54,299 nt of DNA, from positions 1 to 54,299 of the IMG/VR virus record IMGVR_UViG_3300038400_000028; one strand, 5' to 3'. Below are positions 1,223 to 48,896 of the stretch, piece after piece. A program made the translations under genes and the position numbers. Positions within the stretch are counted from its first letter, which is position 1. The number at the start of each line of letters is the position of its first letter. The notes under the pieces are model-generated. The model was not told the origin of the DNA. It searched no databases and saw only the letters and a list, made by a program, of their open reading frames with translations. Origin of the DNA: a virus. Lineage: Duplodnaviria > Caudoviricetes.

Positions 1223-1225
1223 CGT

Positions 1226-21479: not shown

Positions 21480-21839
21480 TTATGGCAAAAGCCCAAACAG
21501 CTTCCCGAGTGCCTGTAATGCGGGGACGCTCGACAATGCTCCAATGACAACAATTGCCGTCCGCATCCCCTTCCATTGGTTCAGTCGCGCTTCATTCTGA
21601 TCGATCAACTGGTCGATCTTGTCTTCCAGCTTCGCAATCCGCTCGATGATCCCCACCTGGCGCGTTCGCACATCACCGTACATCAGCGCCTCTAGCTGGG
21701 CCACAGCTTTGATGAGCGGCGCGATCTGGGTGGCGGCCTCAGCAGACACTTGCTCGCGCACGGTGCGCATAGCGGTCGAAAGCTCCTGGACCGCCGAGAG
21801 CACCTGCTTGTAATACTGCTGCTCGTCACTCGCGCTCAT
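21480..21839 (-). CDS. Coiled-coil protein with C-terminal membrane anchor (lysis-associated)
   Basis: LMYGD...GIIERIAKLE coil followed by a hydrophobic tail. Confidence 0.6.
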   Translation of the reverse strand: MSASDEQQYYKQVLSAVQELSTAMRTVREQVSAEAATQIAPLIKAVAQLEALMYGDVRTRQVGIIERIAKLEDKIDQLIDQNEARLNQWKGMRTAIVVIGALSSVPALQALGKLFGLLP

Positions 21840-22317
21840 TGATCTTGATACGCTCTTGCAATAATGTAATGACCTGATCTTGGAGCGCGATCAAACGACC
21901 CTGCGTTGCGGCGTTCTCTTGCTGGTGCCGCGCTGACACGTCACGAACGATCGCAATCGTCAGCCCACCGTCGAGCGGGCCAAGCGCGATCTCGACGTTG
22001 ATGACCGTCCCGTCGGCACGGAGCGCCGGAAGCGTCCGGCCGAGCGCCATCGGACGCTGGCGTGGGGCCGCGTTATAGAGCGCGCGGTGGCCGCGATGCC
22101 GCGGACGGATAGACTCCGGGATAAGCAAATCAACATTCTTTTGTAGCAACGCCTCGATGCTGTAGCCAAACAGCAGTGCGGCCTGGCTGTTGGCGGCAAC
22201 GATCGCGCCAGCGGGATCAACCACGAGCGCGGCATCAGGGACGACATGTATCCATTCCGCCACAATGCTATCCCCCGGTTGGGCGATCCCCACGCCCGTA
22301 ATCTCTGCTACAATCAC
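21826..22317 (-). CDS. Stand-alone PAS (S-box) domain protein, FixL-like
   Basis: PDAALVVD..GAIVAANSQAALLFGYS..LL...VDLLIP..R..H...GR.LPALRADG...VEIAL...AIVRDVS. Confidence 0.9.
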   Translation of the reverse strand: MIVAEITGVGIAQPGDSIVAEWIHVVPDAALVVDPAGAIVAANSQAALLFGYSIEALLQKNVDLLIPESIRPRHRGHRALYNAAPRQRPMALGRTLPALRADGTVINVEIALGPLDGGLTIAIVRDVSARHQQENAATQGRLIALQDQVITLLQERIKINERE

Positions 22318-22396: not shown

Positions 22397-22708
22397 CTAG
22401 TCCCCGACTGCGCACGAGCGCGCTTGCTCGTCCAATATCCGATCGATCTGCTCTAAATGGCGCTGGTGCAAAGTCAATTGTTCGCGCATCCGCACAGCCA
22501 TTTCGCGATCGACCTCCTGCGCGCTCGCCAAAAACATGACCGCCTGCACTGCCAAACGCTGCGCGATATCGGCGAATTGTGCCAGGAGGTCATCCGCCGC
22601 CGCCTGAATAGCGACCTGATCGCCCGCTGTGACCGCTGCGCTGAACCGATCGACGGCCGCGATCTGCTGCTCTCTGATAGAGCGCCGTCGGCGATAGACG
22701 CGAGTCAT
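22397..22708 (-). CDS. Helical hypothetical protein
   Basis: ATGA-coupled to the amidase stop. Confidence 0.55.
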   Translation of the reverse strand: MTRVYRRRRSIREQQIAAVDRFSAAVTAGDQVAIQAAADDLLAQFADIAQRLAVQAVMFLASAQEVDREMAVRMREQLTLHQRHLEQIDRILDEQARSCAVGD

Positions 22709-23418
22709 AGATGCTCCAGCTGCTCGAGCAGCGCGAACCCAAGGCCATTTTTCATGTGGCCAATCCCGCCCCACTCCGGCTTAACCTCGTCGATCTCAAC
22801 GACGGCGCCAGAGGGCAGGAAAGCCGTGCCGTTCAGGGCGATGGGGAAGTTCAGCCCAGGCCCTTGATGCACCGCGGCGCCGCGCACGCGGTAGGTGCCT
22901 GGCGCATTGACCATCAGGCTCTGCTTGAAAGTGGCCCAATCGAAATTCGCGGGGTCAGTCTTCCGACCGCGCGGGATGGCAATATCGAGGTGACGCACGA
23001 CATGAGAAAGCGGGATGTGATACTCCGTCATCTTTGCCTGCACCAGGGCACGGAAAGCGGCAATCTGGACAGCGGGGTAGGGATCGGGCGGATGGGTCGT
23101 CTTATTCGGCATCTCCATCCCGGTGAGATTCTCCAGCTCGATCCCGAGCGATCCCGCCTGGATCTCCTCACTGTCCAGATCGTTCCAGAACGACGCGCCG
23201 GCGTGCCAAGCCGCGCGGGCGTCGGCGACGAGCTGGGCGATGTGGCCATCCTTACGGACGAGGTAATGCGAGGAAACACGGGAATTGGGGTTACAGAGCC
23301 AGTTTAGGGAAGAGAGGTATGGGCCGACCGTCGCATGGCCGACGATCAGCGTGATGGGCTGCCCGTTGCGCGAGCTGTGATTAGGGGAACTGTGCGATCG
23401 GTCGATGTCGAGGGTCAT
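22705..23418 (-). CDS. Endolysin: N-acetylmuramoyl-L-alanine amidase (Amidase_2/AmpD-like) with SH3b-like tail
   Basis: IVGHAT, VSSHYLV, AWHAG, SLGIELE, VVRH..RKTDP. Confidence 0.92.
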   Translation of the reverse strand: MTLDIDRSHSSPNHSSRNGQPITLIVGHATVGPYLSSLNWLCNPNSRVSSHYLVRKDGHIAQLVADARAAWHAGASFWNDLDSEEIQAGSLGIELENLTGMEMPNKTTHPPDPYPAVQIAAFRALVQAKMTEYHIPLSHVVRHLDIAIPRGRKTDPANFDWATFKQSLMVNAPGTYRVRGAAVHQGPGLNFPIALNGTAFLPSGAVVEIDEVKPEWGGIGHMKNGLGFALLEQLEHL

Positions 23419-23457
23419 GCCCAGCCCTTCCGCAGCGCGGACGAGCTCAGCGCCCTT

Positions 23458-23487
23458 ATGGTAACACGGGAAGACGGGCGGCGTCAA
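23458..23487 (-). promoter_or_regulatory. Promoter of the lysis/late arm
   Basis: TTGACG-18 nt-TACCAT with extended TG. Confidence 0.6.
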
Positions 23488-23523
23488 GAGGGTGGAAGAA
23501 TTGTAATCTGGAAAGATTGCCTC

Positions 23524-23581
23524 TTGACTTGTACGTACAGACGTGTTATACTGTACGTACTGAGATAAACGATGTACGGAC
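23524..23581 (+). promoter_or_regulatory. Strong promoter with TGTACGTACA-type operators
   Basis: TTGACT-17 nt-TATACT; TGTACGTACA 23530-39, TGTACGTACT 23552-61, TGTACGGAC 23573-81. Confidence 0.8.
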
Positions 23582-23595
23582 GAAAGGGCAAAGAC

Positions 23596-23817
23596 ATGAC
23601 AGAGCAGACAAAGAAAACCGCACACATCCGCCGCAGTCTCCTGAGCATTTGGCTCGACGCCGGCAAAGGCCGCGGCGGCACATGCAAAACCGAGGTTGAT
23701 TTCGATAAGCAGTGTGAGCTAGTGAAGGGCGCAGGCTACGAGCTGATCGACCTGGACGCTCACGACGCCAGCACAGGGCGCCCCCTTCCCTCAAATGCGT
23801 GGGCATGGAGGAAATAA
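23596..23817 (+). CDS. Small hypothetical protein (candidate anti-defence)
   Basis: AAGGG RBS; first gene of an operator-controlled operon. Confidence 0.65.
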   Translation: MTEQTKKTAHIRRSLLSIWLDAGKGRGGTCKTEVDFDKQCELVKGAGYELIDLDAHDASTGRPLPSNAWAWRK

Positions 23818-24243
23818 ATGGCACACACCGCATATCAGCTCGGGCGACTACTGGCCGCCCTTGAGCATCTCAAGGCAACAAACCAGCCGCGCCAACTGTA
23901 TGTCCAGGCATCGAGCCAGCCATCGGCGCTTGTGCCGATCCTGGCACGCGCGACCACATTCCCCGGCGCGGTCGATATTCTGACGCCTATCGTCGGCCAG
24001 TTGCCCGATGACGCATTTAGCAGGGAACTGACCAACGAAGAGTCGAGCGATTTCGCTCTGGGCTACTACCATCAGCGGGCCGATTTCAGGAAGGGGGTGC
24101 TTCCCGCACTTCCCGAAACCGAGCCGGATCTTGACGCCCGCTATGAGTTGCGCATGGACACCGATCTCAAAGCCTGGGTCAAAGCGAACGGCGGTGACAA
24201 GCTCATCCGTGCTTTGCTTCGCGAGGCCCGCGACAAAAGGTAA
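23818..24243 (+). CDS. Cas11c/Cas8c(Csd1) C-terminal-like domain fused to an RHH-like domain
   Basis: AYQLGRLLAALE, ASSQP, ELTNEESSDFALGYYHQR; C-terminal RYELRMDTDLKAWVKANGGDKLIRALL. Confidence 0.8.
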   Translation: MAHTAYQLGRLLAALEHLKATNQPRQLYVQASSQPSALVPILARATTFPGAVDILTPIVGQLPDDAFSRELTNEESSDFALGYYHQRADFRKGVLPALPETEPDLDARYELRMDTDLKAWVKANGGDKLIRALLREARDKR

Positions 24244-24335
24244 GGCCCCGCCACTTGCCCGAGCGACGGGGCCACCGTGGAGAGAGAGGAGATTAGGAGT
24301 ACACGAAGCATACCACAAGCGGGGCCGCTCTGCAA
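24243..24335 (-). ncRNA. Putative sRNA with anti-SD motifs (span includes its promoter)
   Basis: TTGCAG-17 nt-TATGCT; transcript ACTCCTAATCTCCTCTCTCTCC followed by a GGCCCCG/CGGGGCC hairpin. Confidence 0.5.
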
Positions 24336-24351
24336 GAGGGCCCACGAAATA

Positions 24352-24430
24352 TGCTATACTGCGTGAAACAACACCCCGGCACGGCGCGACGAGCTCAGCA
24401 GGCACCCGCGCGGCCGGGGTGTTTCGGCGT
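24352..24430 (+). ncRNA. Putative hairpin sRNA (span includes its promoter)
   Basis: TGcTATACT, then AACACCCCGG...CCGGGGTGTT stem with inner GCGCG/CGCGC; no ORF. Confidence 0.55.
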
Positions 24431-24442
24431 AAAGTGCCGAGG

Positions 24443-24877
24443 CTATCTCGGCACGGTCATTTTCCAGATACCGAGTTGCTCAGTTACACCATCCCAAGCA
24501 ACCACATCAGCACGCTTAATATCACCGACCAGCATCGGAACCTCAGTTTGATCCGGTCCCAGCGGCAGCGTCCCCATGACAATCAAATGCTGCAAGGCGC
24601 CGTCGGCGTCGAACTCCTGCTTGACCCCCCGTACCAGCATGGAGCGCGCCGATCGTAGATCAATATCGATGTCCGTGTCGGCATTCATCGGCAGCGTGAC
24701 GGTCATCGTTCCCGTCGCCACCTGCGCAATCCATCCACCTGGCGGCAGTCCTCGCGCCTCGCGGGTCGATGCCGGCAACGCGGCTTGGAGAATGCGGATC
24801 GCCTGACGCTCACGCGTCTCGGCCGGCATGCCACAACCAGCGAACAAGACTAACGCTATAAGTACGAACCAGCGCAT
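24443..24877 (-). CDS. Lipoprotein (possible superinfection exclusion)
   Basis: Lipobox LFAGC; lies downstream of the repressor. Confidence 0.7.
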   Translation of the reverse strand: MRWFVLIALVLFAGCGMPAETRERQAIRILQAALPASTREARGLPPGGWIAQVATGTMTVTLPMNADTDIDIDLRSARSMLVRGVKQEFDADGALQHLIVMGTLPLGPDQTEVPMLVGDIKRADVVAWDGVTEQLGIWKMTVPR

Positions 24878-25065
24878 AGATTACAACAAGATTAAAGACT
24901 ACCGCAAAGGGTATTTACAGCTTGACTCGACTTATGGTAGTATGGTTGAATAATCGTCCGGCTCGAAGGTCTCTATCCGCCGGCCCCGCCCGCTGGCCTC
25001 CTCTTTCGTTTCAGCGCGCTACCCGCGTGGCGCTGGCGCGCTGGCCTATCCCCCAGGAGGCTTGT

Positions 25066-25353
25066 GTGTCGCTCAGAACGATCAGGAACCTCTTCTATCT
25101 TTCGGTCATTGCCGTCGCGGTCATCCTCGACTGCACCGGCGGCGTGATTGGCTGGGCAGCGGCTGTCATCGTGCTGGCAGGCGCCAAGCCAATATTCAGC
25201 CTTGGGTGCCAAGCCGCAGAGCAAAAAGGCGCAAAAGATGCGCTTACACGAGTCAGGCAGCGCGCACTAGCCGATCTTGCTACTGACGACCCTGTTCTTC
25301 AAGAAGAGCATCAGCAGCTTCAACAAGCCGGCGCCGCAACGCATCCCGATTAA
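25066..25353 (+). CDS. Two-TM membrane protein with a structured leader
   Basis: AGGAGG RBS plus GTG; upstream GCCTCCT can pair with the RBS. Confidence 0.55.
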   Translation: MSLRTIRNLFYLSVIAVAVILDCTGGVIGWAAAVIVLAGAKPIFSLGCQAAEQKGAKDALTRVRQRALADLATDDPVLQEEHQQLQQAGAATHPD

Positions 25354-25636
25354 CCCCCTGCATGCGCATCAGCCGTGCATACCAGGCATCTGCTAGCACT
25401 TCTGCCTGTTCCTTAGTCGCACGCGGATCGAGCAGCGCTCCTACGTCCTCCCAGGAACCGCCCACCGCATCGTTGACCGCTTTTAGAGTGCTCGCACCTG
25501 GGTCCTGGATATCTCGCGAAATGAGACGCGAGATGTAACCGGGCTTCTTGCCGGCCTGCACTGCGACTGCCCCAACCTTCAGTCCCTGAAGGCTCACAAG
25601 GCGATCGAAATACACTCCTACTGCCTCCACACTCAT
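25280..25636 (-). CDS. XRE-family HTH repressor (CI-like)
   Basis: GLKVGAVAVQAG..PGYISRL...DPGASTLKAV; divergent from the cro-like gene. Confidence 0.8.
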   Translation of the reverse strand: MSVEAVGVYFDRLVSLQGLKVGAVAVQAGKKPGYISRLISRDIQDPGASTLKAVNDAVGGSWEDVGALLDPRATKEQAEVLADAWYARLMRMQGVNRDALRRRLVEAADALLEEQGRQ

Positions 25637-25639
25637 ACC

Positions 25640-26030
25640 TCCATTATAGCAATGATTACCCCTAGGTAAATACCCGCGCGCGTATTGACTTTGTTACGTG
25701 TGCGTGATACAATCCGCATAGGTGACAAATATATCCCCCAAAGGTGATAGTATGCTGCCCAAAGAGGAACTGATACCTATTGTCGACTCCGCTTTTGACG
25801 AGGTGCGCGCCAGGCTGCGTGTGGCAAACGATACCGAGCTCGCCCGAGTGCTTGGAACCTCGCAAAAAACTATCTCCGAACTCCGTAACGGCCACTGGAC
25901 CACCATCGACGCCGCGCTGATCAGCGTGCTCGTCACCGCGCTCCGACCCATCGAACAAATTGCGTGAAAATTCATCCCGCATAGGTATTGACATTATGAC
26001 CTATACGTGATATACTTTACGCATAGGTTA
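25640..26030. promoter_or_regulatory. Immunity switch: two rightward promoters and repeated CGCATAGGT-type operators
   Basis: TTGACT-17-TACAAT (about 25685) and TTGACA-17-TATACT (about 25988); CGCATAGGT near 25716, 25978 and 26020, with variants near 25657, 25735 and 25998. Confidence 0.75.
25752..25967 (+). CDS. Cro-like HTH protein
   Basis: NDTELARVLGTSQKTISELRNG. Confidence 0.8.
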   Translation: MLPKEELIPIVDSAFDEVRARLRVANDTELARVLGTSQKTISELRNGHWTTIDAALISVLVTALRPIEQIA

Positions 26031-26059
26031 TGAATTTATCACGCACAGGAGCCACCCCA

Positions 26060-30046: not shown

Positions 30047-30655
30047 ATGACAACAGCACTCACCAAACGAGAACCACAAAACCGATTGACACTTGACACC
30101 ATGAATCTGATCATGGCGCTCGCGCCGAGCTGGCATACCTGTCGCTGGTTCGGTATCAGCAGCCCGGAACAAGCCACTGTACTGATGGCGAAAGCCGCCG
30201 ATCTGGGGCTGCCAATCACCAGTGCCTTCGACTTGATCAAACCGATTTCGACGCCGAACGGCACCGACCTGGCGCTCTCGCCACGTGGCGCCCAGGCGCT
30301 CATCCTCGCGAGCGGCCTCCTGGAAGATATGCAGATTGACAACCAGCCCGAGCGCTGCACCGTCACATTGAAACGGCGCGGTGTCCCGACACCAATCACG
30401 ATCACGTTCGCTATTGACGACGCACGGAAAGCCGGCTTGACTGCTGGCAGCCCGACATCTAGCGGCAAGCCGCGCGGCGACGGCGGCTATGAACGATGGC
30501 TCGCCAACATGCTGCGCTGGCGAGCGCTGGGCTTCGCTCAGGATTTGCTCTTCGCCGATGTCTGCGGCGGCCTCAGTAGCGCGGCAAAATACGATATCCC
30601 GATCACTGAAGAGGGTGATTTTGCCGAAAGCGAGGCCACCAATGATCGCGCTTAA
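30047..30655 (+). CDS. RecT/Red-beta-like ssDNA annealing protein
   Basis: TFAIDDARKAGL...YERWLANMLRWRAL...FADVCGGL. Confidence 0.75.
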   Translation: MTTALTKREPQNRLTLDTMNLIMALAPSWHTCRWFGISSPEQATVLMAKAADLGLPITSAFDLIKPISTPNGTDLALSPRGAQALILASGLLEDMQIDNQPERCTVTLKRRGVPTPITITFAIDDARKAGLTAGSPTSSGKPRGDGGYERWLANMLRWRALGFAQDLLFADVCGGLSSAAKYDIPITEEGDFAESEATNDRA

Positions 30656-31478
30656 CAGCGTACCGGGTGGCCTCCAACTGACCACACCATACGATGCGGC
30701 GTTCCTACACGAGTTCAAGCTGGCCGTGCCGCACACAGCACGCCAGTGGGCCAAACCGCACTGGATCGTCGATGTCGCCTACGGCCCCAAGCTGATCGAG
30801 TTGATCTACGCCTACTTTGGCCAGCAGCTGTCATTGCCACAAGCTACTGCCGCGCCAGCGACGCCAGAAATCCGCGCGATCGAGTTGCGCTATCTGGGCC
30901 GCTGCAAAGAGCGCGGCGACGGCAGCGAGACCAGCGCCTACGGGTATGCTGGCGGCGCCTGGTCAGTCGTGTTGCCCGAGTCGGTACTGCGCGCCTGGTT
31001 TTACGCCGCGCCCGAGCGCGAGCAGCAAGGCAAGCCCCAGACACTCTTCGCTGTGCTGGGTATCGCGCCGGACGCCGATACAACCGCTATCAAGAAAGCG
31101 TTCCGGCGGCTGGCGCTCCAGTGGCACCCCGACACCTGCAAAGAGCCGGACGCCGCCGAACAGTTCAGAAAGATCAACGACGCCTATCAGATCCTGAACG
31201 ACCCAATCAAGGCGAAGAAGTATCGCGCTGGCCTGGCACTCGAAGCCAGCTTGGCGACCACACAGCAGGCCGACGCTGATTACTTTCGGTCGCTCTACAA
31301 CGACGGCTACCGCGCGCCGCTCCGCTGCGGCTATATCCTGGCAGAAGGCCAGCAGCGGCTGGGCCGGTTCGTCATCAGCAAGATTCTCGGCTGGGAAGAC
31401 ATCACGCGGGCCGACGGCAAAACGCTCGTCAGCTCGTGGGACATGGACGCCGAGCGCATCAAAGAGGAGTGGGTCTAA
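30642..31478 (+). CDS. J-domain (DnaJ-like) protein
   Basis: VLGI..IKKAFRRLALQWHPD..FRKINDAYQIL. Confidence 0.9.
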   Translation: MIALNSVPGGLQLTTPYDAAFLHEFKLAVPHTARQWAKPHWIVDVAYGPKLIELIYAYFGQQLSLPQATAAPATPEIRAIELRYLGRCKERGDGSETSAYGYAGGAWSVVLPESVLRAWFYAAPEREQQGKPQTLFAVLGIAPDADTTAIKKAFRRLALQWHPDTCKEPDAAEQFRKINDAYQILNDPIKAKKYRAGLALEASLATTQQADADYFRSLYNDGYRAPLRCGYILAEGQQRLGRFVISKILGWEDITRADGKTLVSSWDMDAERIKEEWV

Positions 31479-32017
31479 TGCAAACTGCACTCGTGCCTGG
31501 CTCGCTCCAGGCGATCGCCAAACAGGACGGCAAAAGCATCGCCGAGACGTTCCTGGGGGCCGACGCGATCATCCTGGTCGATGTCTCCGGCAGTATGTCC
31601 GGCAGCCCGTTTGATCAGGCATGCGGCGAGTTGCGCAAGCTTCAGGCCGATCTGCCCGGCAAGGTCGCCGTCGTCGGCTTCAGCGATGCGCCCGAGTTCG
31701 CGCCCAGCGGTCGCCCGCGCTTCAGCAGCGGCGGCACCGACCTGGCGCGAGCGCTGGCCTTCGTGCATGTGGCCGACGGCTGCGGTGTGCGCTTTATCGT
31801 CATCAGTGACGGCTATCCGAACGACCCCGACGCCGCGCTTAAAGAGGCCAGCACATTCGAGAGCCGGATCGACTGCGTATTCATCGGCCCTGAAGGCGAC
31901 TCGGGCGCCGCGTTTTTGAAGAAACTCGCGGCGGTCAGCGGCGGCCAATACAGTAAAAACCAGGTCGGCGAGGTCGCCGAGCGAGCCAAGCAGCTGCTAC
32001 TGGTCGCAGCATCGTAG
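31478..32017 (+). CDS. vWA-domain protein
   Basis: MIDAS DVSGSM, GGTDL, ISDG. Confidence 0.88.
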   Translation: MQTALVPGSLQAIAKQDGKSIAETFLGADAIILVDVSGSMSGSPFDQACGELRKLQADLPGKVAVVGFSDAPEFAPSGRPRFSSGGTDLARALAFVHVADGCGVRFIVISDGYPNDPDAALKEASTFESRIDCVFIGPEGDSGAAFLKKLAAVSGGQYSKNQVGEVAERAKQLLLVAAS

Positions 32018-36573: not shown

Positions 36574-37112
36574 CACACCCCGCCCTCATCCTCGGCCTCG
36601 ACTATTCCAGCGCGGCAATCGGCTGGTGTGTGCGCAACAGCCACGTCGTCGATCGCGGCGTTATCCGGCTCGACAAGAAAGCCGACATCAGCGAGCGTTG
36701 CTGGTCAGCGCAGCGCGCGGTCGAGGATCTGCTGATGCGCCACGCGGTCGATGCCGTGGCGCTAGAAAGCCCGGTCGCACGGTTCGCGAAGGCGGTCATC
36801 CCCCAGGCACGCATCAGCGGCGTGGTGCTCGCCACGCTGGCCCAGCATAGTCGCGCCTGGTGCGAAGTCACCCCCACAGCCGCCAAGCTGGCGCTCGCCG
36901 AGGATGGCGCGGCGACCAAGCGCGAGATGCTCGAAGCAGCGGCTGCGCACTTCGGGTATGACTCGGCGACGCTGGTGTATCGCTCGCGGCGCGACGAGTG
37001 GGCCGCGTGGCTCGACGGCTGTGGGGCGTGTGAATACAGCGAGCACGAGGCCGATGCGCTGGGGGTGGCGTTGGCGGCCGCGGGCAAGGTGGAGGTGTGC
37101 AATGTTGTCTGA
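36570..37112 (+). CDS. RuvC-like Holliday junction resolvase
   Basis: ILGLD, VALESP, AKLA...ATKREM, HEADAL. Confidence 0.85.
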   Translation: MTHPALILGLDYSSAAIGWCVRNSHVVDRGVIRLDKKADISERCWSAQRAVEDLLMRHAVDAVALESPVARFAKAVIPQARISGVVLATLAQHSRAWCEVTPTAAKLALAEDGAATKREMLEAAAAHFGYDSATLVYRSRRDEWAAWLDGCGACEYSEHEADALGVALAAAGKVEVCNVV

Positions 37113-37959
37113 TGTTGATGTGCTCGATCTCGGGAGCGATCTGCGGCTGCGTTATCGCTATTTCATGCGTGAGTCGCTCCAGCATCCTGCCAAGCTGCAT
37201 CTGGGGCTGCTGGCCTGGCTGATCGAGCGCTACACGCGACCGGGTGAGACCATCGCCGACCCGATGGGGGGCATCGGCTCGACTGCCTACGCGGCCCTTC
37301 TGCAGCGCAACGTCATCTTGCGCGAGATCGAGCCGAAGTGGCTCAATCTGGCGTGCAAGAATGCCGCTTGTATCACCCGCGCGGCCGGGCTGTTCGCCGG
37401 CACCATCAACCTGGGCCAGGCCGATGCCCGTGAGCCGTGGGGATATATGGCCGATCATATCCTCTTCAGCCCGCCCTACGGGTGCGATGCACAGCACAAA
37501 GCCGGCACACGCACGCGCAACCTGGCCGATCGGCTGAGTAAGTTCGACTCTCGCCAGGTGCGCTATTCGCAGCGCTGGTCATCCCTGGCCAAGCGCGCCA
37601 CAACGCAGCAAGGCGCCGCCGCCCTCTTTAACTTCGCCTACGGCGACCACGTGGCCCAGCTCGGGCATCTGCGTGGCGAGCGCTACTGGCAGGCGATGGA
37701 ACAGGTCTACACCCAGGCCCGCTCCGCGCTCCATCCCGGCGGCCTGTTGATCCTCATCATCAAAGATCACATCAGGGACGGGATGCGCGTTCAGACCGCC
37801 GAGCAGACTGTGATGCTGTGTGAGCGGCTCGGCTTCACCCTGGCTGCCAGGCACGCGCGACGGGTGTGTCCACTCAGCCTCTGGCAGCGGCGGCGCAAGG
37901 AGCGCGGCGAGCCGGTTGTGGAAGAGGAAGATGTGCTAGTGTTTCGAGGTGAAGCATGA
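37102..37959 (+). CDS. Amino (N4C/N6A) DNA methyltransferase
   Basis: HPAK, ADPMGGIGST, FSPPY. Confidence 0.85.
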   Translation: MLSDVDVLDLGSDLRLRYRYFMRESLQHPAKLHLGLLAWLIERYTRPGETIADPMGGIGSTAYAALLQRNVILREIEPKWLNLACKNAACITRAAGLFAGTINLGQADAREPWGYMADHILFSPPYGCDAQHKAGTRTRNLADRLSKFDSRQVRYSQRWSSLAKRATTQQGAAALFNFAYGDHVAQLGHLRGERYWQAMEQVYTQARSALHPGGLLILIIKDHIRDGMRVQTAEQTVMLCERLGFTLAARHARRVCPLSLWQRRRKERGEPVVEEEDVLVFRGEA

Positions 37960-38822
37960 CCGATTCACGCCTGACGGCCTATCTGAAAACAGCGCGCGAG
38001 CGACAGCATGCCTTTTATGCGCGCCAGGCGTTCCGCTTCGCCGCCCAGGCCGGCGACACGGCGGCGATGGAAGAGGCGATGGCACTCGGCGCGGTCGACT
38101 ACCAGCCGGAGCCAAACGTGTACAGCAGATATATACCCGGCGAGGAAAAGATGCTTGACCAGATCATCACCGGCGACGCGCGCGAGCTCGCGAAAGATAT
38201 CCCCGATTCGTCGGTGGATATGATTTTCACTGACCCGGTGTACGAAAATGTGGAGGATTACGCATGGCTGGCTGAGACTGCTGCGCGTGTCCTGAAACCG
38301 GAGAAAGCCTGCTTGGTTTGGTGTAGCAGCGTGAAACAGTACGAAGTACAGCCGCTCATGCGAAAGCACCTTACCTTTGTCCTACAGCTGACGTACACGA
38401 AGGTCGCGAAAGCCTACAAGGTGTGGGGCTATAAAACCTTCCTCTGGACCACGCCATGCCTGTGGTTTCAGAAGGACGGTGATCACTTCCACGCGGACCA
38501 CGAGTGGCTGATCGATAGTGTGCTGGACTATGGCAATGCGATCACCAGCACGGCGACGCCGCCCGCAAAAACCCATAAGTGGCACAAGAACCCGGAGGCA
38601 TATAGCTACTGGCTACAGCGCTTTACGAGACCCGGGGATGTGGTGTGGGACCCGTTCACCGGCAGCGGGTCGCTGCCACTCGTTTGCTTAGAGCACGGCC
38701 GGCACTTCATCGCCTCCGAGATCGTGCCGGAGATCGCTGATCAGGCCCGCGCCCGCATCGCGCAGGTGCAGAGCCAGACGCGGATGCCGCTGATCGAACA
38801 ATACGCAATGGAGCTGACATGA
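37956..38822 (+). CDS. Beta-class amino DNA methyltransferase (alternative start 38151)
   Basis: SVDMIFTDPVY...HKWHKNP...VWDPFTGSGS. Confidence 0.88.
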   Translation: MTDSRLTAYLKTARERQHAFYARQAFRFAAQAGDTAAMEEAMALGAVDYQPEPNVYSRYIPGEEKMLDQIITGDARELAKDIPDSSVDMIFTDPVYENVEDYAWLAETAARVLKPEKACLVWCSSVKQYEVQPLMRKHLTFVLQLTYTKVAKAYKVWGYKTFLWTTPCLWFQKDGDHFHADHEWLIDSVLDYGNAITSTATPPAKTHKWHKNPEAYSYWLQRFTRPGDVVWDPFTGSGSLPLVCLEHGRHFIASEIVPEIADQARARIAQVQSQTRMPLIEQYAMELT

Positions 38823-38898
38823 TCGCCACAACGTCCATCATCACATCCCTGCTAGGCGCCCATGCCCCGGTGGCGATCGGCGTTTCGGGGATGGTGCT

Positions 38899-40149
38899 GT
38901 GAAAACATTTCGCACCCTCTTCTCTGGCGGCGAGTTGTTTGGTGCGGGCGCTCGCGCGGCTGGCTGGCAGCACCTCGACGGCTATGAGATCGATGAGCGT
39001 ATCGCCGCCGTGGCGCGCCTGAACGGTTTCGACGTGCGAACGATTGATGTATGCCAGGTCGATTACGACAGTCTGCCGCCAGCCGACCACTTGCACGCCT
39101 CGCCCAGCTGCAAGCACGCCAGCCAGGCCAATACACAGGCTGGTGAGACCGACGAGGACCGGACGGCGGCCGACGCCGTGTGCCGGGCTGTTCGAGCGCA
39201 CCAGGGCGCGACGGTGTCGCTCGAAAACGTTTGGGGCTACCGCACCTTCGAGTCGTTTCGGCGCATCCTGGCTACGTTGAAGGCGTGTGGTTTCGTCGTC
39301 GACTTTCGCCACATCAACGCAGCTGATTACGGCGTCCCGCAGACCCGCAAGCGTCTGATCCTGCGCGCTGTCCGAGGCTCGGGCCGCGTGCCGCCGCTGC
39401 ACCCGACGCACCGCAAAGGCGGCGATATGTTCCATGCGCCCTGGATCGGGTGGTACGCGGCAATTGCCGACCTCATCCCGACGCTGCCAGCGACGGAGCT
39501 GGCCCCCTGGCAGCTGGCGCGGCTGCCCGCGGAACTGCGCGAGACGATGTTGTTGAGCGGCGCAATGGCGAACGGCGCCGATGTTGTTACTAGATCGGTC
39601 GATGAACCCGCTGTGACGGTTGTGGCGGCAGAAATAACTAAAATGCCCGTGCGCGCGTACCTCATCGGTTCGGGCGGCTATAACGGGCTCGTCACGCAGC
39701 GGCTGCGTGACGAGCCCTGCTTCACCGTGACATCCACGCATGAGTCCCAGGTGATACGTGCGCTCCTTGTCCAAAGCAAGAACACAAGCCAGGAGTGGGG
39801 TGATGGCTATTGGGTAGACGAGCAGCCGGCGCCGACCGTCGTAAGCGATCACAAACCCAGCCACATGCCGCGCGCCTACCTGCTCGATGGCGACAACGCG
39901 CGTGCCGATACGGGCGAGCAGCTCGCCCGTATCGGCACAGAGCCAGCCATGACGCTCCGCGGCTCGCGCACGACCGCCCAGCGCGCTTACGTCGGTCGCT
40001 GGGTCAGGCTTACGGTGCGGGCCCTCGGCCGTTTCCAGACCGTGCCGGATAGCTACGTCAGCCTGACCGCCGAGATCAATGGGAACGCTGTTCCTCCGCT
40101 TCTTGCTCAACGGATAATGGAATCTTTGTTACCCGCGTACGAACGTTAG
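38899..40149 (+). CDS. C5 cytosine DNA methyltransferase
   Basis: LFSGG, HASPSC, LENV, YGVPQTRKR, RFQTVPD, GNAVPP. Confidence 0.9.
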   Translation: MKTFRTLFSGGELFGAGARAAGWQHLDGYEIDERIAAVARLNGFDVRTIDVCQVDYDSLPPADHLHASPSCKHASQANTQAGETDEDRTAADAVCRAVRAHQGATVSLENVWGYRTFESFRRILATLKACGFVVDFRHINAADYGVPQTRKRLILRAVRGSGRVPPLHPTHRKGGDMFHAPWIGWYAAIADLIPTLPATELAPWQLARLPAELRETMLLSGAMANGADVVTRSVDEPAVTVVAAEITKMPVRAYLIGSGGYNGLVTQRLRDEPCFTVTSTHESQVIRALLVQSKNTSQEWGDGYWVDEQPAPTVVSDHKPSHMPRAYLLDGDNARADTGEQLARIGTEPAMTLRGSRTTAQRAYVGRWVRLTVRALGRFQTVPDSYVSLTAEINGNAVPPLLAQRIMESLLPAYER

Positions 40150-40705
40150 GGGTGGTACCGGCATGTTTATTGACAGTGCGCTCCATATAGGAGGACATTT
40201 TTCTTTTGATATGGTTGCGGGGTCTTTTCCCCTCGTAGTATGTTCCTGCGCAGATCATGTTGATACTCGACGGACTAAGCCCGAAGGTTATGGCAATCTC
40301 TCTTGTTGGCGCACCCTGTCTTTTCATTTCGCGAATTTGCTGGTTGCGCTCAGTCATGGCGTTCCGAATTGCATAAGCCATTTCAATGCGTTGAATAGCC
40401 TCTTTTGCTTTTTCCTGCTTGATAACAAGGAATGGCAGCAGTTTTATCAGGACAGTATAAACATCATCGTAATTGCGAACACGCCAGACGTATTTCGTTT
40501 TCCATTCAGCTTTCATATAGGTAATTTCCTCCACACAACCAAGCTGGAGTTTATCGTGAATACCCATAATAACCGCACGGTTTGTGTTTGCAATGGTAAG
40601 GTCAACCGAGTGTTGTTGTTTGATCTTCAGATAGATACAGCCCTCTCCGTCCATAAAGCCAGCCAGCCAAGTGATGAATTGGTCGTCAGTCCATGTATCA
40701 AACAT
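40076..40705 (-). CDS. Free-standing LAGLIDADG homing endonuclease plus HTH
   Basis: WLAGFMDGEGCI, LLPFLVIKQE; AGGAG RBS; low GC; antisense to the operon. Confidence 0.9.
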   Translation of the reverse strand: MFDTWTDDQFITWLAGFMDGEGCIYLKIKQQHSVDLTIANTNRAVIMGIHDKLQLGCVEEITYMKAEWKTKYVWRVRNYDDVYTVLIKLLPFLVIKQEKAKEAIQRIEMAYAIRNAMTERNQQIREMKRQGAPTREIAITFGLSPSSINMICAGTYYEGKRPRNHIKRKMSSYMERTVNKHAGTTPNVRTRVTKIPLSVEQEAEEQRSH

Positions 40706-40780
40706 GATGTGCTCCTGTGTGTGCAAAGAAGTAAGTTGTTGTCGGTACCGTTAATTATAGCATGTTTCGCACATTTGTTC
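40081..40780. mobile_element. LAGLIDADG element supplying a replacement MTase 3' end
   Basis: NAVPPLLAQRIMESL before and NGVSCLLAQRIMESLR* after the AT-rich insert. Confidence 0.8.
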
Positions 40781-40782
40781 AA
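40754..40782 (-). promoter_or_regulatory. LAGLIDADG gene promoter
   Basis: TTGAAC-17 nt-TATAAT with extended TG. Confidence 0.7.
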
Positions 40783-40831
40783 CGGCGTAAGTTGCCTGCT
40801 CGCCCAGCGGATTATGGAGAGTCTACGATGA
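40781..40831 (+). pseudogene. Displaced original 3' end of the C5 MTase
   Basis: NGVSCLLAQRIMESLR*; its stop overlaps (ATGA) the next gene. Confidence 0.8.
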
Positions 40832-41130
40832 CCCAACCCGACACCGACTCCATCCGCCGCATGCTCGACGACGGCACGCCGATCCCGCCGTGGATCGTGC
40901 GCGGGCTGTGCGACAGAGTAGAGCAGTGCGAAAACGTGATGTCACAGGTAGCTCGCCTGACCCAGGAGGTGCAAACGGATCTGCGTCAGTTTGAAACCGC
41001 GATACGGCCAGAGCTAGGCGCGCTTTTGTGCCTGCTCGCTGCCGCACGCGCCTGGGACGATGCGGTGGAGCGCTGTGACGGCATCGTGGCGGCTGAGGAG
41101 CGACTGCGAGAGGCACTGAGGGGGCTATGA
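40828..41130 (+). CDS. Hypothetical protein
   Basis: ATGA coupling. Confidence 0.6.
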   Translation: MTQPDTDSIRRMLDDGTPIPPWIVRGLCDRVEQCENVMSQVARLTQEVQTDLRQFETAIRPELGALLCLLAAARAWDDAVERCDGIVAAEERLREALRGL

Positions 41131-41834
41131 CGATTGCACTCCGACTCGCCGACCGCGCCGGCGCCGAATGGGCACAGCGCCAGGTCGCGGCGCATCACTA
41201 CCTACATGCGCCGGTTGACCCGCGTAGCCGGCCGCTCGTCTACATCGTACAACTCATCGCACCGAAAGTTGATCGACCGATCGGCTGCCTAATTTTCGGC
41301 AGGCCGGAGGCCACACGCTGCTACGATGGCGCGCTGACCTACGGTTCATCGGCTGATATTCAGGACGGTCGTGCTCGGTTTGACCGCTGGGAGGTGCTGA
41401 ACCTGGCGCGCGTCTGGTTTGATCCTTGTGTGCAGCAGCCGGGCTATCTCTATCACAATCCCGCCTATCTACCGGGCTTCTATGATCGGCACTACACTTT
41501 TCGCTCCACACTGGCCAGCGCGGTCATTGCCCAAGCGCTCTCTCGTGTGGGCCACGACTATTTGACCGCGCATCCGCCGGTCGATTGTGCCTATCCGTAC
41601 CAGATCAAGGCCGTGCTGAGTTACTGCGATCGGCGGCAACATAAAGGCACCATTTACCGTGCTGCTGGCTTTGAGTTGGCGCGCACGAACGAGCGCCAGA
41701 TCGAAACGTGGTACACGATCGCCGTGGCGCCGCTGTCGCCCGAGCAGGATGCCGATATCCGCCACCTATCCGAGACTTCGCAACGTTCGCAGCGCATTCG
41801 CGGCCGGCGAACGCAATTGGAGCTAGGGCTATGA
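41127..41834 (+). CDS. Mom-like DNA modification protein
   Basis: HHYLH, IFGRP, NLARVW, VLSYCD..HKGTIYRAAGF. Confidence 0.75.
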   Translation: MTIALRLADRAGAEWAQRQVAAHHYLHAPVDPRSRPLVYIVQLIAPKVDRPIGCLIFGRPEATRCYDGALTYGSSADIQDGRARFDRWEVLNLARVWFDPCVQQPGYLYHNPAYLPGFYDRHYTFRSTLASAVIAQALSRVGHDYLTAHPPVDCAYPYQIKAVLSYCDRRQHKGTIYRAAGFELARTNERQIETWYTIAVAPLSPEQDADIRHLSETSQRSQRIRGRRTQLELGL

Positions 41835-42094
41835 GCCGCACGCCGCCGACCAGCCAGACGACGATGAGCCGTGTGAAGCAGCTCGCCTGCCTGAAGCGCC
41901 AGATCGATCTCGCCGAACTGCAACGCACGGTCTATGTGCGACGCGCGACGAGTGAGACCGAACCCGAGAGCGCCTTTGAGTGGTCGCTGCGGGTCGGGGT
42001 GGCCGATGCTGATCTGCTCCGGCTGCGCACCGAGTGGCTCGCAATCAAGCTGGCGCTGTGTGCCTGGCAAGCGCGGCGGAAGAAGAAGGTATAA
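41831..42094 (+). CDS. Hypothetical protein
   Basis: ATGA coupling. Confidence 0.55.
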   Translation: MSRTPPTSQTTMSRVKQLACLKRQIDLAELQRTVYVRRATSETEPESAFEWSLRVGVADADLLRLRTEWLAIKLALCAWQARRKKKV

Positions 42095-42096
42095 TC

Positions 42097-42447
42097 ATGG
42101 CCGAGCGCGGCGTGACCCTCAAGCGAGCAGGCGAGATCCTCGGCGGCGACCGGCCGCTGTCGAAGCGCACCATCTCGGCCATGGTCACGCGCGGCGACCT
42201 GGAAGCCTATGGCGAGCGCAAGACGCGGCGCGTCACCGAGCGCAGCATCGAACTGTACCAAAGGGGCACCCCATGGCGCGACGCAAGAAACCAGAGCGCC
42301 AGCGGCGCAAGCGCGGAACCGGATACGCCGGCCAGGCGAAGAACGGGACATGGACCGCGTTCTTCCCCAAGACTCCAAAGGGATGGCACACCCGAAGAGG
42401 ATTTTGCACCCGCGAGGCTGCCGAAGCTTGGTGTGATTCGCTCGTAG
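42097..42447 (+). CDS. Excisionase-like winged HTH
   Basis: TLKRAGEILG..SKRTISAMVTRGDLEA..RRVTERSI; directly before int. Confidence 0.75.
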   Translation: MAERGVTLKRAGEILGGDRPLSKRTISAMVTRGDLEAYGERKTRRVTERSIELYQRGTPWRDARNQSASGASAEPDTPARRRTGHGPRSSPRLQRDGTPEEDFAPARLPKLGVIRS

Positions 42448-43448
42448 CACGCCAGCATGCGCGAGAGGATATTTCGCACGGACAGCAACGAGTTAGCGAG
42501 CAGATCGACCGCTGGATCGAGCGCTCGTCCAGAGAACGCGAATGGAAAGCGAAAACCCTGGCCGATGTGAACTACAAGCTCGGCTATGTCAAGCCCTACA
42601 TCGGCAGCATGGCACTTGCTGATGTTCTGCCCGACGATATCGATAGAATGATGGACGATCTCGAGCGAGCACTCGCCGAGACGACCACACGCCAGATCCG
42701 CAACTACCTCTATCAGGTTTTTGAGTCAGCTGTAAAACGACGCTACATCACGTTCAACCCGGTCATCAAACCAGAGCGTCGCAAGCGAGCGCGGCAGAAG
42801 GAGCCGCAACGCCTGAGCGCGCCACAGACGGCGCTGCTACTGCGCGCGGCGGGATCGTCGTTTTACGCGGTGGCCTGGTGGCTGATCGTCTGCTGTGGTC
42901 TCAGAGCAGGGGAGATCTGCGGGCTACGGCGCTTGGATATCGACCTGGATGCAGCTGTGCTTCTGGTCGCCCAGGAGTACACCGACGTGCGCGGCACGGC
43001 GACGCAGGATCTGCCCAAAGGCGACAAGGTGCTGCCGGTGCCCTTCCCTCGCGCGCTCATCCCGCTGATCCGTGGGCAGTTCGCCGCGCTCACCCGTCGA
43101 GCCGCCCACGGCACCAAATACGGTTACTGGCAGGAGCATCAGCTGGTCTTCCCAGGCCGCGGTGGACGGCCGATGAATCCCACGAGCCTGCGCCATGCAT
43201 TGAAGGCACTGACCGACGCCTGCAAGCTGCCGCCCATCACGACCCACATGCTGCGCCACACCTGCGGCGGGCTGCTGATCGCAGCGGGCGCGCCCGAAAA
43301 CATCATCGGCGGGATACTCCGGCACGGGCCACGCACGATCACTGGCCACTACGCGCCGCCCTCGGTCGAGGTCATGCGGCCGTGGGTAGAGCGAGTATAC
43401 CAGGCGTTGGCCGGCGAGCTCGAGGAGCAAGCAAGGAAAGAGGCTTGA
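42273..43448 (+). CDS. int: Tyrosine integrase
   Basis: Arm-binding N-terminus RRKRGTG; GLRAGE, HMLRH, LRH...ITGHY. Confidence 0.93.
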   Translation: MARRKKPERQRRKRGTGYAGQAKNGTWTAFFPKTPKGWHTRRGFCTREAAEAWCDSLVARQHAREDISHGQQRVSEQIDRWIERSSREREWKAKTLADVNYKLGYVKPYIGSMALADVLPDDIDRMMDDLERALAETTTRQIRNYLYQVFESAVKRRYITFNPVIKPERRKRARQKEPQRLSAPQTALLLRAAGSSFYAVAWWLIVCCGLRAGEICGLRRLDIDLDAAVLLVAQEYTDVRGTATQDLPKGDKVLPVPFPRALIPLIRGQFAALTRRAAHGTKYGYWQEHQLVFPGRGGRPMNPTSLRHALKALTDACKLPPITTHMLRHTCGGLLIAAGAPENIIGGILRHGPRTITGHYAPPSVEVMRPWVERVYQALAGELEEQARKEA

Positions 43449-48830: not shown

Positions 48831-48884
48831 CACGGCAATTGCCGTGAAGCGGGCAAGCAAAATCGCACGGCAATTGCCGTGAAG
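48831..48884. repeat. Two perfect 16-bp palindromes CACGGCAATTGCCGTG (parC/operator-like)
   Basis: 48831-48846 and 48866-48881, each followed by AAG. Confidence 0.85.
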
Positions 48885-48896
48885 AAAGGAATTGAC

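Follow-up and report, generated by a model that had tools for sequence, protein, structure and literature searches.

The timing of late-gene expression and lysis in phages is known to be set by proteins, namely Q-type antiterminators, late activators and sigma factors; RNA immunity factors such as c4 and CI are negative regulators in cis-linked arrangements. The c4 RNA is excised from the transcript that also carries its target. In regulation of the DsrA-rpoS type and in the engineered cis-repressed, trans-activated riboregulators the leader folds on the ribosome-binding site, and a small RNA releases the site by binding to the upstream arm. In P1 and P7 the pairing sequences of c4 have been described as differing between related phages and defining specificity; the RNA binds around the ribosome-binding site, whereby synthesis of the antirepressor is blocked (PMC12197685). 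The P4 CI RNA pairs with leader sequences and acts on termination, thereby deciding whether the transcript is extended (PMC4825925). The lambdoid late promoter is described as always active, with transcription stopped immediately downstream, and read-through switches on the lysis and late genes (PMC7547250). The design rule of the engineered small transcription activating RNAs (STARs) is complementarity to the 5' arm of a terminator hairpin together with an unpaired flank and, by that report's own account, no natural or synthetic small RNA had until then been known to activate transcription (bioRxiv 10.1101/022772).

The window examined here is the whole 54,299-nucleotide stretch of the IMG/VR record IMGVR_UViG_3300038400_000028. 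The nearest genome relatives of its endolysin are Roseiflexus and Chloroflexus assemblies, and the carriers of the locus are uncultured soil phages, probably of Chloroflexota. Further endolysins (P0002 and P0004-P0009) are 57-84% identical. Since the loop of a candidate small RNA and its target in the late leader change together in eleven related phages, the locus very probably is a real, previously undescribed RNA switch of the late genes; the 38 further phage sRNAs of an sRNA review may include similar ones. We lean slightly towards a trans-acting small RNA whose loop pairs with the late leader and activates late expression, where we infer from the sequence that the RNA is produced, that it meets the leader and that the effect is positive.

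The putative small-RNA gene

The putative gene consists of the following elements:

24331..24360, plus strand: small-RNA promoter read from the sequence, with a weak -35-like TGCAAG (24331-24336), an 18-nt spacer and the extended -10 TGCTATACT (24352-24360)
24370..24423, plus strand: stem-loop 1, predicted by folding, with an 11-bp outer stem (24370-24380/24413-24423), inner pairs and the apical region 24389-24406
24388..24399, plus strand: recognition sequence GACGAGCTCAGC in the apical loop, complementary to the minus-strand RNA from 23440-23451
24434..24464, plus strand: stem-loop 2 and T-run, by folding the likely small-RNA terminator; the terminator scan lists 24434-24454 followed by GGTCATTTTC

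The small RNA would be about 60-100 nt long and would run on the plus strand roughly from 24367 to 24427 or 24464, its gene being laid out as an extended -10 promoter of its own, followed by the long hairpin and then the short one of the terminator. The original prediction had put one copy of a repeated 12-mer in the loop of a promoter-preceded plus-strand hairpin with no ORF. The copy at 24388-24399 does lie in the loop of a strong hairpin, and no credible plus-strand ORF was found 3' of stem-loop 1. As for the promoter, an extended -10 (TGnTAnnnT) stands 3-12 nt 5' of the hairpin in 11/11 loci of this kind, the motif having been part of model R1 or of the filter by which some of these loci were found, but the -35 is weak and the promoter is absent from the list of the consensus promoter scan.

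The inverted repeat of stem-loop 1 is 100% complementary. The region 24360-24470 folds with -53.7 kcal/mol (z -3.8), and 24362-24430 folded alone gave z -2.1. The convergent gene 24443-24877 has its stop codon within stem-loop 2. The region of stem-loop 1 also folds on the minus strand; it is followed 3' only by TTT on the plus strand and by GTTGTTT on the minus strand, the terminator scan does not list it, and a terminator role leaves its covarying loop unexplained. The Rfam search at 24349-24434 gave zero matches even at E up to 10, C4 and IsrK included, and at gathering score no family was found in the window or in the related loci L002, L015, L089, L091 and L171. The GAAAC at the 5' end of the small RNA was also considered as resembling a CRISPR repeat, which was rejected since neither L002 nor L015 preserves the motif.

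Contigs from four DNA runs were compared with the window. A related contig of run X5 has at least 8 changes in 24327-24363, and among the positions listed none falls in the -10 or in 24388-24399. A variant of run X2 differs at two positions inside the loop, with G for A at 24397 and A for G at 24398, which by themselves count neither for nor against the pairing.

The late promoter, the proposed target and the endolysin leader

The other partner lies about 950 bp away on the opposite strand, where the late transcript would start at a strong sigma70-like promoter:

23458..23487, minus strand: late/lysis promoter, sigma70-like, TTGACG, 18 nt, TACCAT, with TG before the -10; listed by the consensus scan
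23440..23451, minus strand: target, the predicted first ~12 nt of the late transcript (mRNA GCTGAGCTCGTC), beginning 6 nt past the -10
23419..23451, minus strand: leader hairpin of the minimum-energy fold, in which the target pairs with the Shine-Dalgarno region GGAAGGG (23425-23431)
22705..23418, minus strand: Amidase_2 endolysin, the first late-arm gene (Pfam PF01510, E 6e-28; PHROG endolysin/amidase)
23524..24273, plus strand: inserted accessory cassette between the target and the small-RNA gene, absent in L002

Downstream of the endolysin, on the same strand, the lysis, packaging and structural genes follow, including terminase, portal, capsid and tape measure. The late promoter agreed with the sigma70-like assignment made for it earlier, and the minus-strand leader does read as had been stated, with GCGC on either side of the match, which is situated 22-33 nt upstream of the endolysin ATG (23418-23416), that is, at -33 to -22 relative to the AUG. 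The 4-bp GCGC/GCGC hairpin which had been proposed to present this sequence as a loop was not supported: it is weak (-5.0 kcal/mol; range -0.8 to -5.0) and is not the predicted fold. The minimum-energy fold of the window leader has -21.9 to -22.8 kcal/mol, with 10/12 target bases paired with the Shine-Dalgarno region, and the hairpin is without a U-tract. Twelve bases in the apical loop of the small RNA would pair with the late/lysis transcript over its first 12 bases; the computed duplex of the window loop with its cognate leader has -27 to -28 kcal/mol, in contrast to -10 to -20 with ten foreign leaders, and the Shine-Dalgarno (23425-23431) and the start codon lie outside it. Neither the small-RNA promoter nor the late promoter contains the operator-like motif of the immunity region.

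The cassette is variable: a contig of run X2 joins 23468 to 24267, and in run X5 there are 906 other letters instead. Its ORF2 matches the C-terminus of Cas_Csd1 (6e-11). The cassette is no part of the switch.

The repeated 12-mer and its counterparts in related loci

The repeat itself was found where it had been reported: GACGAGCTCAGC occurs on the plus strand at 23440-23451 and 24388-24399, and the window contains no other exact copy. With one mismatch allowed there are 3 matches to the 12-mer against 0.64 expected, and 3 were reached in 4/100 shuffles. The window holds 308 maximal direct repeats of at least 12 nt, 30 of them within 1 kb (block shuffles gave 117 and 4.9). Generic repeats linking leader and upstream sequence show no enrichment across endolysin loci: direct ones of at least 12 nt were seen in ~9 loci and inverted ones in ~7. 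A single 12-nt direct repeat by itself is not beyond chance, and this one gains its weight only from the comparison with related loci. Five entries of the generic repeat list, L038 (15-mer), L039, L092 (14-mer), L094 and L095, were discarded as coding repeats without a hairpin. An origin of the repeat as target-site duplication by the inserted cassette was also discarded, since L002 is without the cassette yet has its own repeat.

The locus screen gave 33 rows, 12 of which were kept (7 distinct GC-rich loci); 21 rows were dropped by eye as low-complexity and AT-rich (L004, L055, L057, L062, L071, L081, L102, L112, L117, L118, L125). A hairpin scan with 556 matches was too permissive and was left out, and the MAFFT alignments of the hairpins came out of register. 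The search of 171 sources with model R1 yielded nothing else convincing, blastn of 22700-25000 against the phage GenBank collection gave zero matches, and no related loci were found with the lipoprotein-like neighbour as search anchor.

The same anatomy was found in 11 distinct loci, each with its own loop-leader match of 9-17 nt and with no common core among the recognition sequences. The match is GACGAGCTCAGC in the window, GACAGGCTTGGC in L002 and GACAGGCCTCGC in L015; it is 17 nt long in L089 (with one G:U, the only internal difference, wobble-compatible in the predicted RNA duplex), 16 in L091, 11 in L171, 13 in L008, 9 in L019, 16 in L022, 12 in L038 and 11 in L092. The 12-nt match to the window loop was reached by 0/378 other 60-nt windows of the locus (null maximum 9), and in the six loci tested the cognate match was reached by 0 of 326-696 other 60-nt windows per locus (null maximum 8-9). 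In an 11x11 matrix the cognate leader was the unique best by exact match in 9/11 cases and had the lowest duplex energy in 9/11. Among the exceptions, L019 and L092 have their specificity in common, the L008 loop scores better on the L015 leader, and another part of the L092 leader matches the L015 loop over 11 nt.

Each of the 11 hairpins is predicted to be far more stable than its shuffles (z -2.1 to -7.4; for 8/11, 0/200 shuffles were as good), and in the 10 homologous hairpins outside the window the stem sequences differ while the pairing is kept (z -2.7 to -7.4). The target begins 2-9 nt past a -10 element in all loci, equivalent promoters standing directly 5' of it. The distance from target to small-RNA gene is ~950 bp in the window, compared with ~90-140 bp in the relatives without the inserted cassette. 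Loop covariation in related phages had been named beforehand as a check, and eleven loci with a sequence of their own in each were the outcome. Since loop and leader covary across these 11 distinct loci, the RNA-RNA reading is supported.

Predicted folding of the leaders and the probable sign of the control

In three leaders, those of the window, L002 and L171, the target makes up the 5' arm of the predicted hairpin and the Shine-Dalgarno region the opposite arm; 10/12, 10/12 and 10/11 target bases, respectively, are paired in the minimum-energy fold. When the target was blocked, the unpaired probability of the Shine-Dalgarno rose from 0.10 to 0.51 in the window, from 0.19 to 0.59 in L002 and from 0.31 to 0.48 in L171. 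L002 and L015 can also adopt the window-type fold: two of its pairs have changed in both bases, and no pair is lost. In these two loci and the window, the variable positions of the target keep their pairing to the loop as well as to the Shine-Dalgarno arm (three-way covariation). The minimum-energy fold of L015 uses another partner, the homologous fold being 2.3 kcal/mol above the minimum.

In a second set of leaders, which includes L171 again, the hairpin predicted by ViennaRNA runs into a U-tract, with 5-7 U in 9 nt for L008, L019, L038, L092 and L171, and a U5 for L022; the simple terminator scan lists only the L019 leader, in a shorter register, and flagged neither L038 nor L092. The target bases paired in the minimum-energy fold are 12/13 in L008, 8/9 in L019, 14/16 in L022, 8/12 in L038 and 9/11 in L092. 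The complementarity spans the whole outer 5' arm and unpaired flanking bases, and 8-14 of the 9-16 complementary bases of these five loci lie within the 5' arm. Taken by these folds, the leader hairpin appears to be inhibitory in 8/11 loci, being either Shine-Dalgarno sequestering or terminator-like.

According to the model, without the small RNA the first bases of the transcript would form the 5' arm of the leader hairpin and the endolysin ribosome-binding site its 3' arm, and the first late gene would be closed by default. Pairing with the small RNA would take the 5' arm away, whereby the ribosome-binding site would open, a translational activation of the anti-antisense kind. In the sister group the 5' arm is in a hairpin with a U-tract directly past the late promoter, and there the small RNA would serve as an antiterminator in trans. 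Because pairing would engage the 5' arm of a leader hairpin that appears to be inhibitory, it should lift a block and not impose one. Thus from the proposal of trans-acting loop-leader control of the first late gene the pairing is retained, being backed by covariation in 11 loci, and the control is probably positive, opposite to the sign proposed at first.

The original sign corresponds to a small RNA that forms a kissing complex at the 5' end of the late mRNA and so keeps the late arm silent in the lysogen, as an immunity factor similar to P1 C4 or P4 CI, by blocked ribosome entry, triggered cleavage or polarity. We regard this as rather unlikely, even though the same loop-leader covariation applies to it. 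The phage is temperate, since it encodes a partition protein and, at 41934-43448, an integrase. Neither promoter shows an immunity-type operator and both look constitutive, so that a standing repressor RNA would explain the silence of a sigma70-type late promoter. The target of L089 is unpaired (0/17 bases) and adjoins the hairpin that holds the ribosome-binding site, and in L015 the accessibility of the Shine-Dalgarno falls from 0.47 to 0.18 when the target is blocked. The fast change of specificity between close relatives resembles the heteroimmunity pattern described for c4 (PMC12197685). Against silencing, the duplex at -33 to -22 from the AUG leaves the Shine-Dalgarno and the start codon uncovered, in 8/11 loci the target is already locked in an inhibitory hairpin, where a repressor would be redundant and pairing would undo the block, and neither a second target nor a processing context as in C4 and CI was found, nor an Rfam match.

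Activation of the late leader, the reading that we prefer, has difficulties of its own. It fails or is neutral in 3/6 loci tested by accessibility folding; the leader fold of L091 is weak, and neither in L089 nor in L091 is the ribosome-binding site paired with the upstream segment. Fast diversification of specificity is a trait of immunity (repressor) RNAs such as c4 and counts against activation. So do the absence of the small-RNA promoter from the consensus scan, the terminator scan with L019 as its only listing, the place of the sister-group hairpin in a 5' UTR and the exceptions in the matrix, and no RNA run was found that contains 23300-24600. The small-RNA promoter looks constitutive, and an activator with such a promoter is an incomplete switch, since nothing was found that would keep it off in the lysogen. 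Since all the promoters look sigma70-like, the question is open to direct reporter tests.

Direction of regulation and possible protein operators

In the sister group the long hairpin does not stand alone as a small RNA but serves as 5' UTR to a divergent operon: L008, L019, L038 and L092 have a ribosome-binding site and an ORF 3' of it, and the L019 operon encodes a Sigma70_r2/r4 protein, i.e. a gene of the sigma-70 family. This arrangement would suit the reverse direction, in which a short RNA that starts at the late promoter and stops at the leader hairpin would do the regulating, with the hairpin-bearing transcript as its target. Stx phages are described as making a regulatory short RNA of this kind from the constitutive late promoter, terminated just downstream (PMC7547250). 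Nevertheless we hold it to be very unlikely, as no co-directional gene is found past the hairpin in the window, L002, L015 and L089, where the next gene is convergent or ends earlier, and the complementary bases of the leader are paired in its own hairpin while those of the long hairpin are in the open loop.

The shared DNA operator offered as an alternative in the original prediction is unlikely, and the wider proposal that the two copies are operators of one DNA- or RNA-binding protein with co-evolving specificity, without RNA-RNA function and with the hairpin as a bidirectional terminator, is highly improbable: both copies are on one DNA strand with one at +1 of the late promoter, the GAGCTC of the window's copy is palindromic, and the hairpin, which folds on the minus strand too, stands at the 3' end of a convergent gene in the window, L002 and L015, but the 11 loci lack a common sequence core, the match varies between 9 and 17 nt and the spacing from ~90 to 950 bp, the second copy is always in the hairpin loop with the stem pairing kept through changed sequence, the target covaries on the RNA with the Shine-Dalgarno arm as well, the single L089 difference is wobble-compatible (G:U) in the predicted RNA duplex, and no covarying regulator gene was identified.

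Comparison with known systems

If the model is correct, a separately transcribed small RNA that unlocks the lysis/late leader would be a new way to build a late switch. Orthogonal keys would mean that one phage can neither trigger the lysis genes of another nor be triggered by it, and eleven naturally orthogonal loop-target pairs could be used as they are in building synthetic RNA circuits. For these uncultured soil phages the switch would offer a first handle on their regulation. The broadest form of the proposal, a natural programmable key-and-lock late switch in which the antisense loop invades a terminator or ribosome-binding-site hairpin and each lineage has its orthogonal key, is put forward tentatively, at somewhat less than an even chance.

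Like c4 (immI; the C4 family of Rfam), the locus would give a small phage RNA that exposes short sequences for pairing with the leader of a developmental gene, and the covarying pairing sequences were found here too. The likeness to P1 C4 and P4 CI drawn at the outset is retained to the extent that short specific loop-target pairs differ between related phages. Membership in these families was not supported: there is no Rfam match, and the small RNA would come from its own promoter on the opposite strand and not from processing of the target transcript. Furthermore, unlike c4, it has a single target at the extreme 5' end, off the ribosome-binding site, which is not covered, and the predicted effect is positive. 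With P4 CI and its IsrK/SeqA relatives the locus has in common that RNA rather than protein would decide on a phage transcript. P4 CI is processed from the transcript of its own target, has two sites (seqA, seqC) and causes termination, whereas here the site is single, the 12-mer occurring exactly just twice, once in the loop and once in the target. The RNA would come from a gene of its own, and by pairing with the hairpin's 5' arm it should keep transcription from terminating; IsrK/SeqA, too, gave no Rfam match. The layout of promoter and immediate stop recalls lambdoid PR'/tR'. The lambdoid antiterminator is the protein Q acting on RNA polymerase, whereas here an RNA would act on the terminator hairpin.

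The nearest counterparts in mechanism are activators. By folding, the window, L002 and L171 fit the anti-antisense activators, with the ribosome-binding site paired upstream and a small RNA complementary to that segment; as distinct from the DsrA-rpoS type, the pair here is phage-encoded and placed at the late operon, and the recognition sequence is in the apical loop of a long hairpin. The predicted layout of L008, L019, L022, L038 and L092, in which an intrinsic terminator right after the promoter is the target and the complementarity is to the 5' arm of the hairpin, is that of the engineered STARs. The STARs were designed, whereas the present pairs are known from their sequence, and the window would have the translational version, with sequestering of the Shine-Dalgarno and no terminator. 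If confirmed, these loci would be a natural case of sRNA-driven antitermination or riboregulation, the counterpart of the engineered STARs and riboregulators.

The late operon and the repeated 12-mer

The IMG/VR record of 54,299 bp is a complete virus with direct terminal repeats, and it is a temperate tailed phage with the following genes:

minus strand: tape measure, major head protein, portal and terminase
22705-23418: Amidase_2 endolysin
41934-43448: integrase
48879-49931: partition protein
plus strand: primase-helicase

Since the nearest genome relatives of the endolysin come from Roseiflexus, Chloroflexus and Roseiflexaceae assemblies (38-49% identity), a Chloroflexota host would be plausible, but only as a guess. 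The lysis genes include one for a PAS-domain protein (PF13426, 4e-9; 21826-22317, minus strand), located between those for the endolysin and for a coiled-coil/membrane protein, which is an unusual location for a PAS sensor domain. The early arm carries genes for a DnaJ-domain protein (PF00226, 1e-20) and then a weak von Willebrand A-like protein (30489-32017, plus strand). Three consecutive DNA methyltransferase genes, followed by one for a Mom-like modification protein (36904-41834, plus strand), are a heavy investment in DNA modification.

The two copies of the 12-mer described in the original prediction were confirmed at 23440-23451 and 24388-24399, each on the plus strand. The latter is situated within the apical region of a predicted hairpin (24370-24423), the candidate small RNA, which is preceded by an extended -10 read from the sequence (TGCTATACT, 24352-24360) and has a further small hairpin, carrying a T-run, on its 3' side (24434-24454). 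This promoter was absent from the consensus promoter scan because its -35 is poor. The other copy begins 6 nt past the -10 of a minus-strand promoter (TTGACG, 18 nt, TACCAT) contained in the scan list, so the endolysin transcript is predicted to start with these bases. By itself a 12-nt repeat has little meaning here, since the window holds 30 direct repeats of at least 12 nt within 1 kb.

Immediately upstream of the small-RNA -10 (24310-24348, plus strand) there is a short dyad centred on a conserved TGCAA. It occurs at the same position in two related loci, L002 and L015, and in the alignment of the three the arm sequences vary while their complementarity is retained. The dyad may act as a site of control at the small-RNA promoter or fold into a small hairpin there.

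Covariation of loop and leader in related loci

Related loci were gathered using the endolysin as anchor. The protein search gave 198 relatives, 120 of which were listed, and an alignment of 12 of the listed ones was used to retrieve loci from viral contigs (54 loci), metagenome contigs (80 kept of 164) and genome contigs (34 loci); all retrievals, the initial ones included, amounted to 173 loci with several duplicates. The window, L002 and L015 were used to build a covariance model, which was run over 171 sources and matched L089 (E 1e-4) and, weakly, L171 (E 0.022) and L091 (E 0.2). A custom scan for direct repeats in which one copy falls within a hairpin loop and each copy is preceded by a -10 motif, from which 21 AT-rich rows were removed by eye, contributed a sister group of five (L008, L019, L022, L038, L092). 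The same loop-leader arrangement was thus present in 11 distinct loci, a small number, some of them related; the covariance model and the filters used in finding them included the promoter motif.

In L002, the closest relative (endolysin 83% identical), the 800-bp cassette separating the two 12-mer copies of the window is missing and some 90 bp separate the hairpin from the late promoter. The loop and the leader of L002 both read GACAGGCTTGGC, with 4 changes relative to the window found in both copies, and those of L015 both read GACAGGCCTCGC. The loop-leader match extends over 17 nt in L089, where the single difference is a G:U pair, 16 nt in L091 and 11 nt in L171. In the six loci tested, the cognate match was 11-14 versus a null maximum of 8-9, and none of the 326-696 other 60-nt windows per locus attained it.

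The originally predicted complementarity and its conservation in relatives were borne out by locus-specific matches in all 11 loci. The diagonal of the 11x11 loop-leader matrix was 9-13 nt versus an off-diagonal mean of 5.2, and in 9 of 11 cases no other pair scored as well as the cognate one, by exact match and likewise by duplex energy. As exceptions, L019 and L092 have one specificity in common, the L015 loop matches 11 nt elsewhere in the L092 leader, and the GC-rich L008 loop has a better score on the L015 leader than on its own. Every hairpin folds well (z -2.1 to -7.4) despite unrelated stem sequences, and no Rfam family was matched in the window, L002, L015, L089, L091 or L171. In two contigs of a soil sequencing run (X2) the recognition loop has two substitutions, A to G at 24397 and G to A at 24398.

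Predicted pairing partner of the target in the leader

The 4-bp hairpin formerly placed around the target proved to be weak (-0.8 to -5.0 kcal/mol). In the predicted fold of the window leader 10 of the 12 target bases are paired with the Shine-Dalgarno region instead (-21.9 to -22.8 kcal/mol). This fold is also present in L002 and L015, with 2 pairs altered on both sides and none broken, so the variable target positions covary with both the loop and the ribosome-binding arm. When the target was blocked, the predicted Shine-Dalgarno accessibility increased in the window, L002 and L171, was the same in L089 and L091, and decreased in L015, which has a different minimum-energy fold.

In all five sister-group loci the target makes up the 5' arm of a predicted hairpin right behind the late promoter, followed by a U-tract, and the complementarity spans the outer 5' arm and reaches into the unpaired flanking bases. 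Judged from these folds the element looks like an attenuator; a simple terminator scan flagged only that of L019.

Direction of control

Inhibition by a leader hairpin would be relieved by a trans RNA pairing to its 5' arm, hence the small RNA is taken to switch the lysis/late operon on, a reading built on promoters, RNA ends and folds that are predictions throughout. The switch would be translational in the window and transcriptional in the sister group. No operator controlling the small-RNA or the late promoter was found in the window, and this leaves the activation model incomplete.

In the sister group a divergent operon has the hairpin as its 5' UTR. In L019 the transcript with the hairpin (327-1704, minus strand) carries genes for a coiled-coil protein and a member of the sigma-70 family (Sigma70_r2 1e-10, r4 1e-8), suggesting that an operon for a phage sigma factor diverges from the lysis operon. 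In these loci a leader may take the place of the free small RNA as regulator, and control could even run the opposite way.

The original prediction, taken as a negative model, would have the small RNA repress the late genes. Repression would account for the silence of a constitutive-looking late promoter in the lysogen, for the fast diversification of specificities, and for L089 and L015; we consider it possible but less probable than the positive switch, which is preferred.

Accessory cassette and probable immunity region

The cassette between target and small-RNA gene (23524-24273, plus strand) has two genes under a near-consensus promoter (TTGACT, 17 nt, TATACT) overlapped by two TGTACGTAC palindromes. 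Its ORF2 (23818-24243, 141 aa) shows a match (PF09709, 6e-11) to the C-terminus of Cas8c/Csd1, and the tail of the ORF2 product resembles a ribbon-helix-helix domain; by these similarities the cassette could provide a Cas mimic like an anti-CRISPR, along with its own repressor. In an unrelated viral contig (L005) there is a homologous cassette that carries these palindromes too; the cassette is absent from L002, and in another sequencing run (X5) other DNA is in its place.

The probable immunity region (25640-26050) contains an HTH gene (25722-25967, plus strand) divergent from an unnamed gene (25280-25636, minus strand), 4 listed promoters, and 3 exact CGCATAGGT copies inside longer repeats of 37-38 nt, which look like operators.

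Comparison with known systems

Anti-antisense activators such as DsrA likewise relieve an inhibitory leader hairpin by pairing. In our literature search a natural phage case of sRNA-driven late-gene antitermination was not found. A 2025 review of phage small RNAs gives c4, sar, OOP, aQ, 24B_1 and VpdS, as well as a 550-nt cis-antisense RNA that represses an endolysin gene (PMC12197685); nothing comparable to a loop RNA with its own gene that acts on the leader of a late operon is listed in the passages and table legend consulted (PMC12197685). In E. coli, an sRNA attenuating the terminator of another sRNA has been described (PMC9765468). The engineered STARs work by the same principle as proposed here, a trans RNA directed to the 5' arm of an inhibitory hairpin relieving the inhibition (bioRxiv 10.1101/022772).
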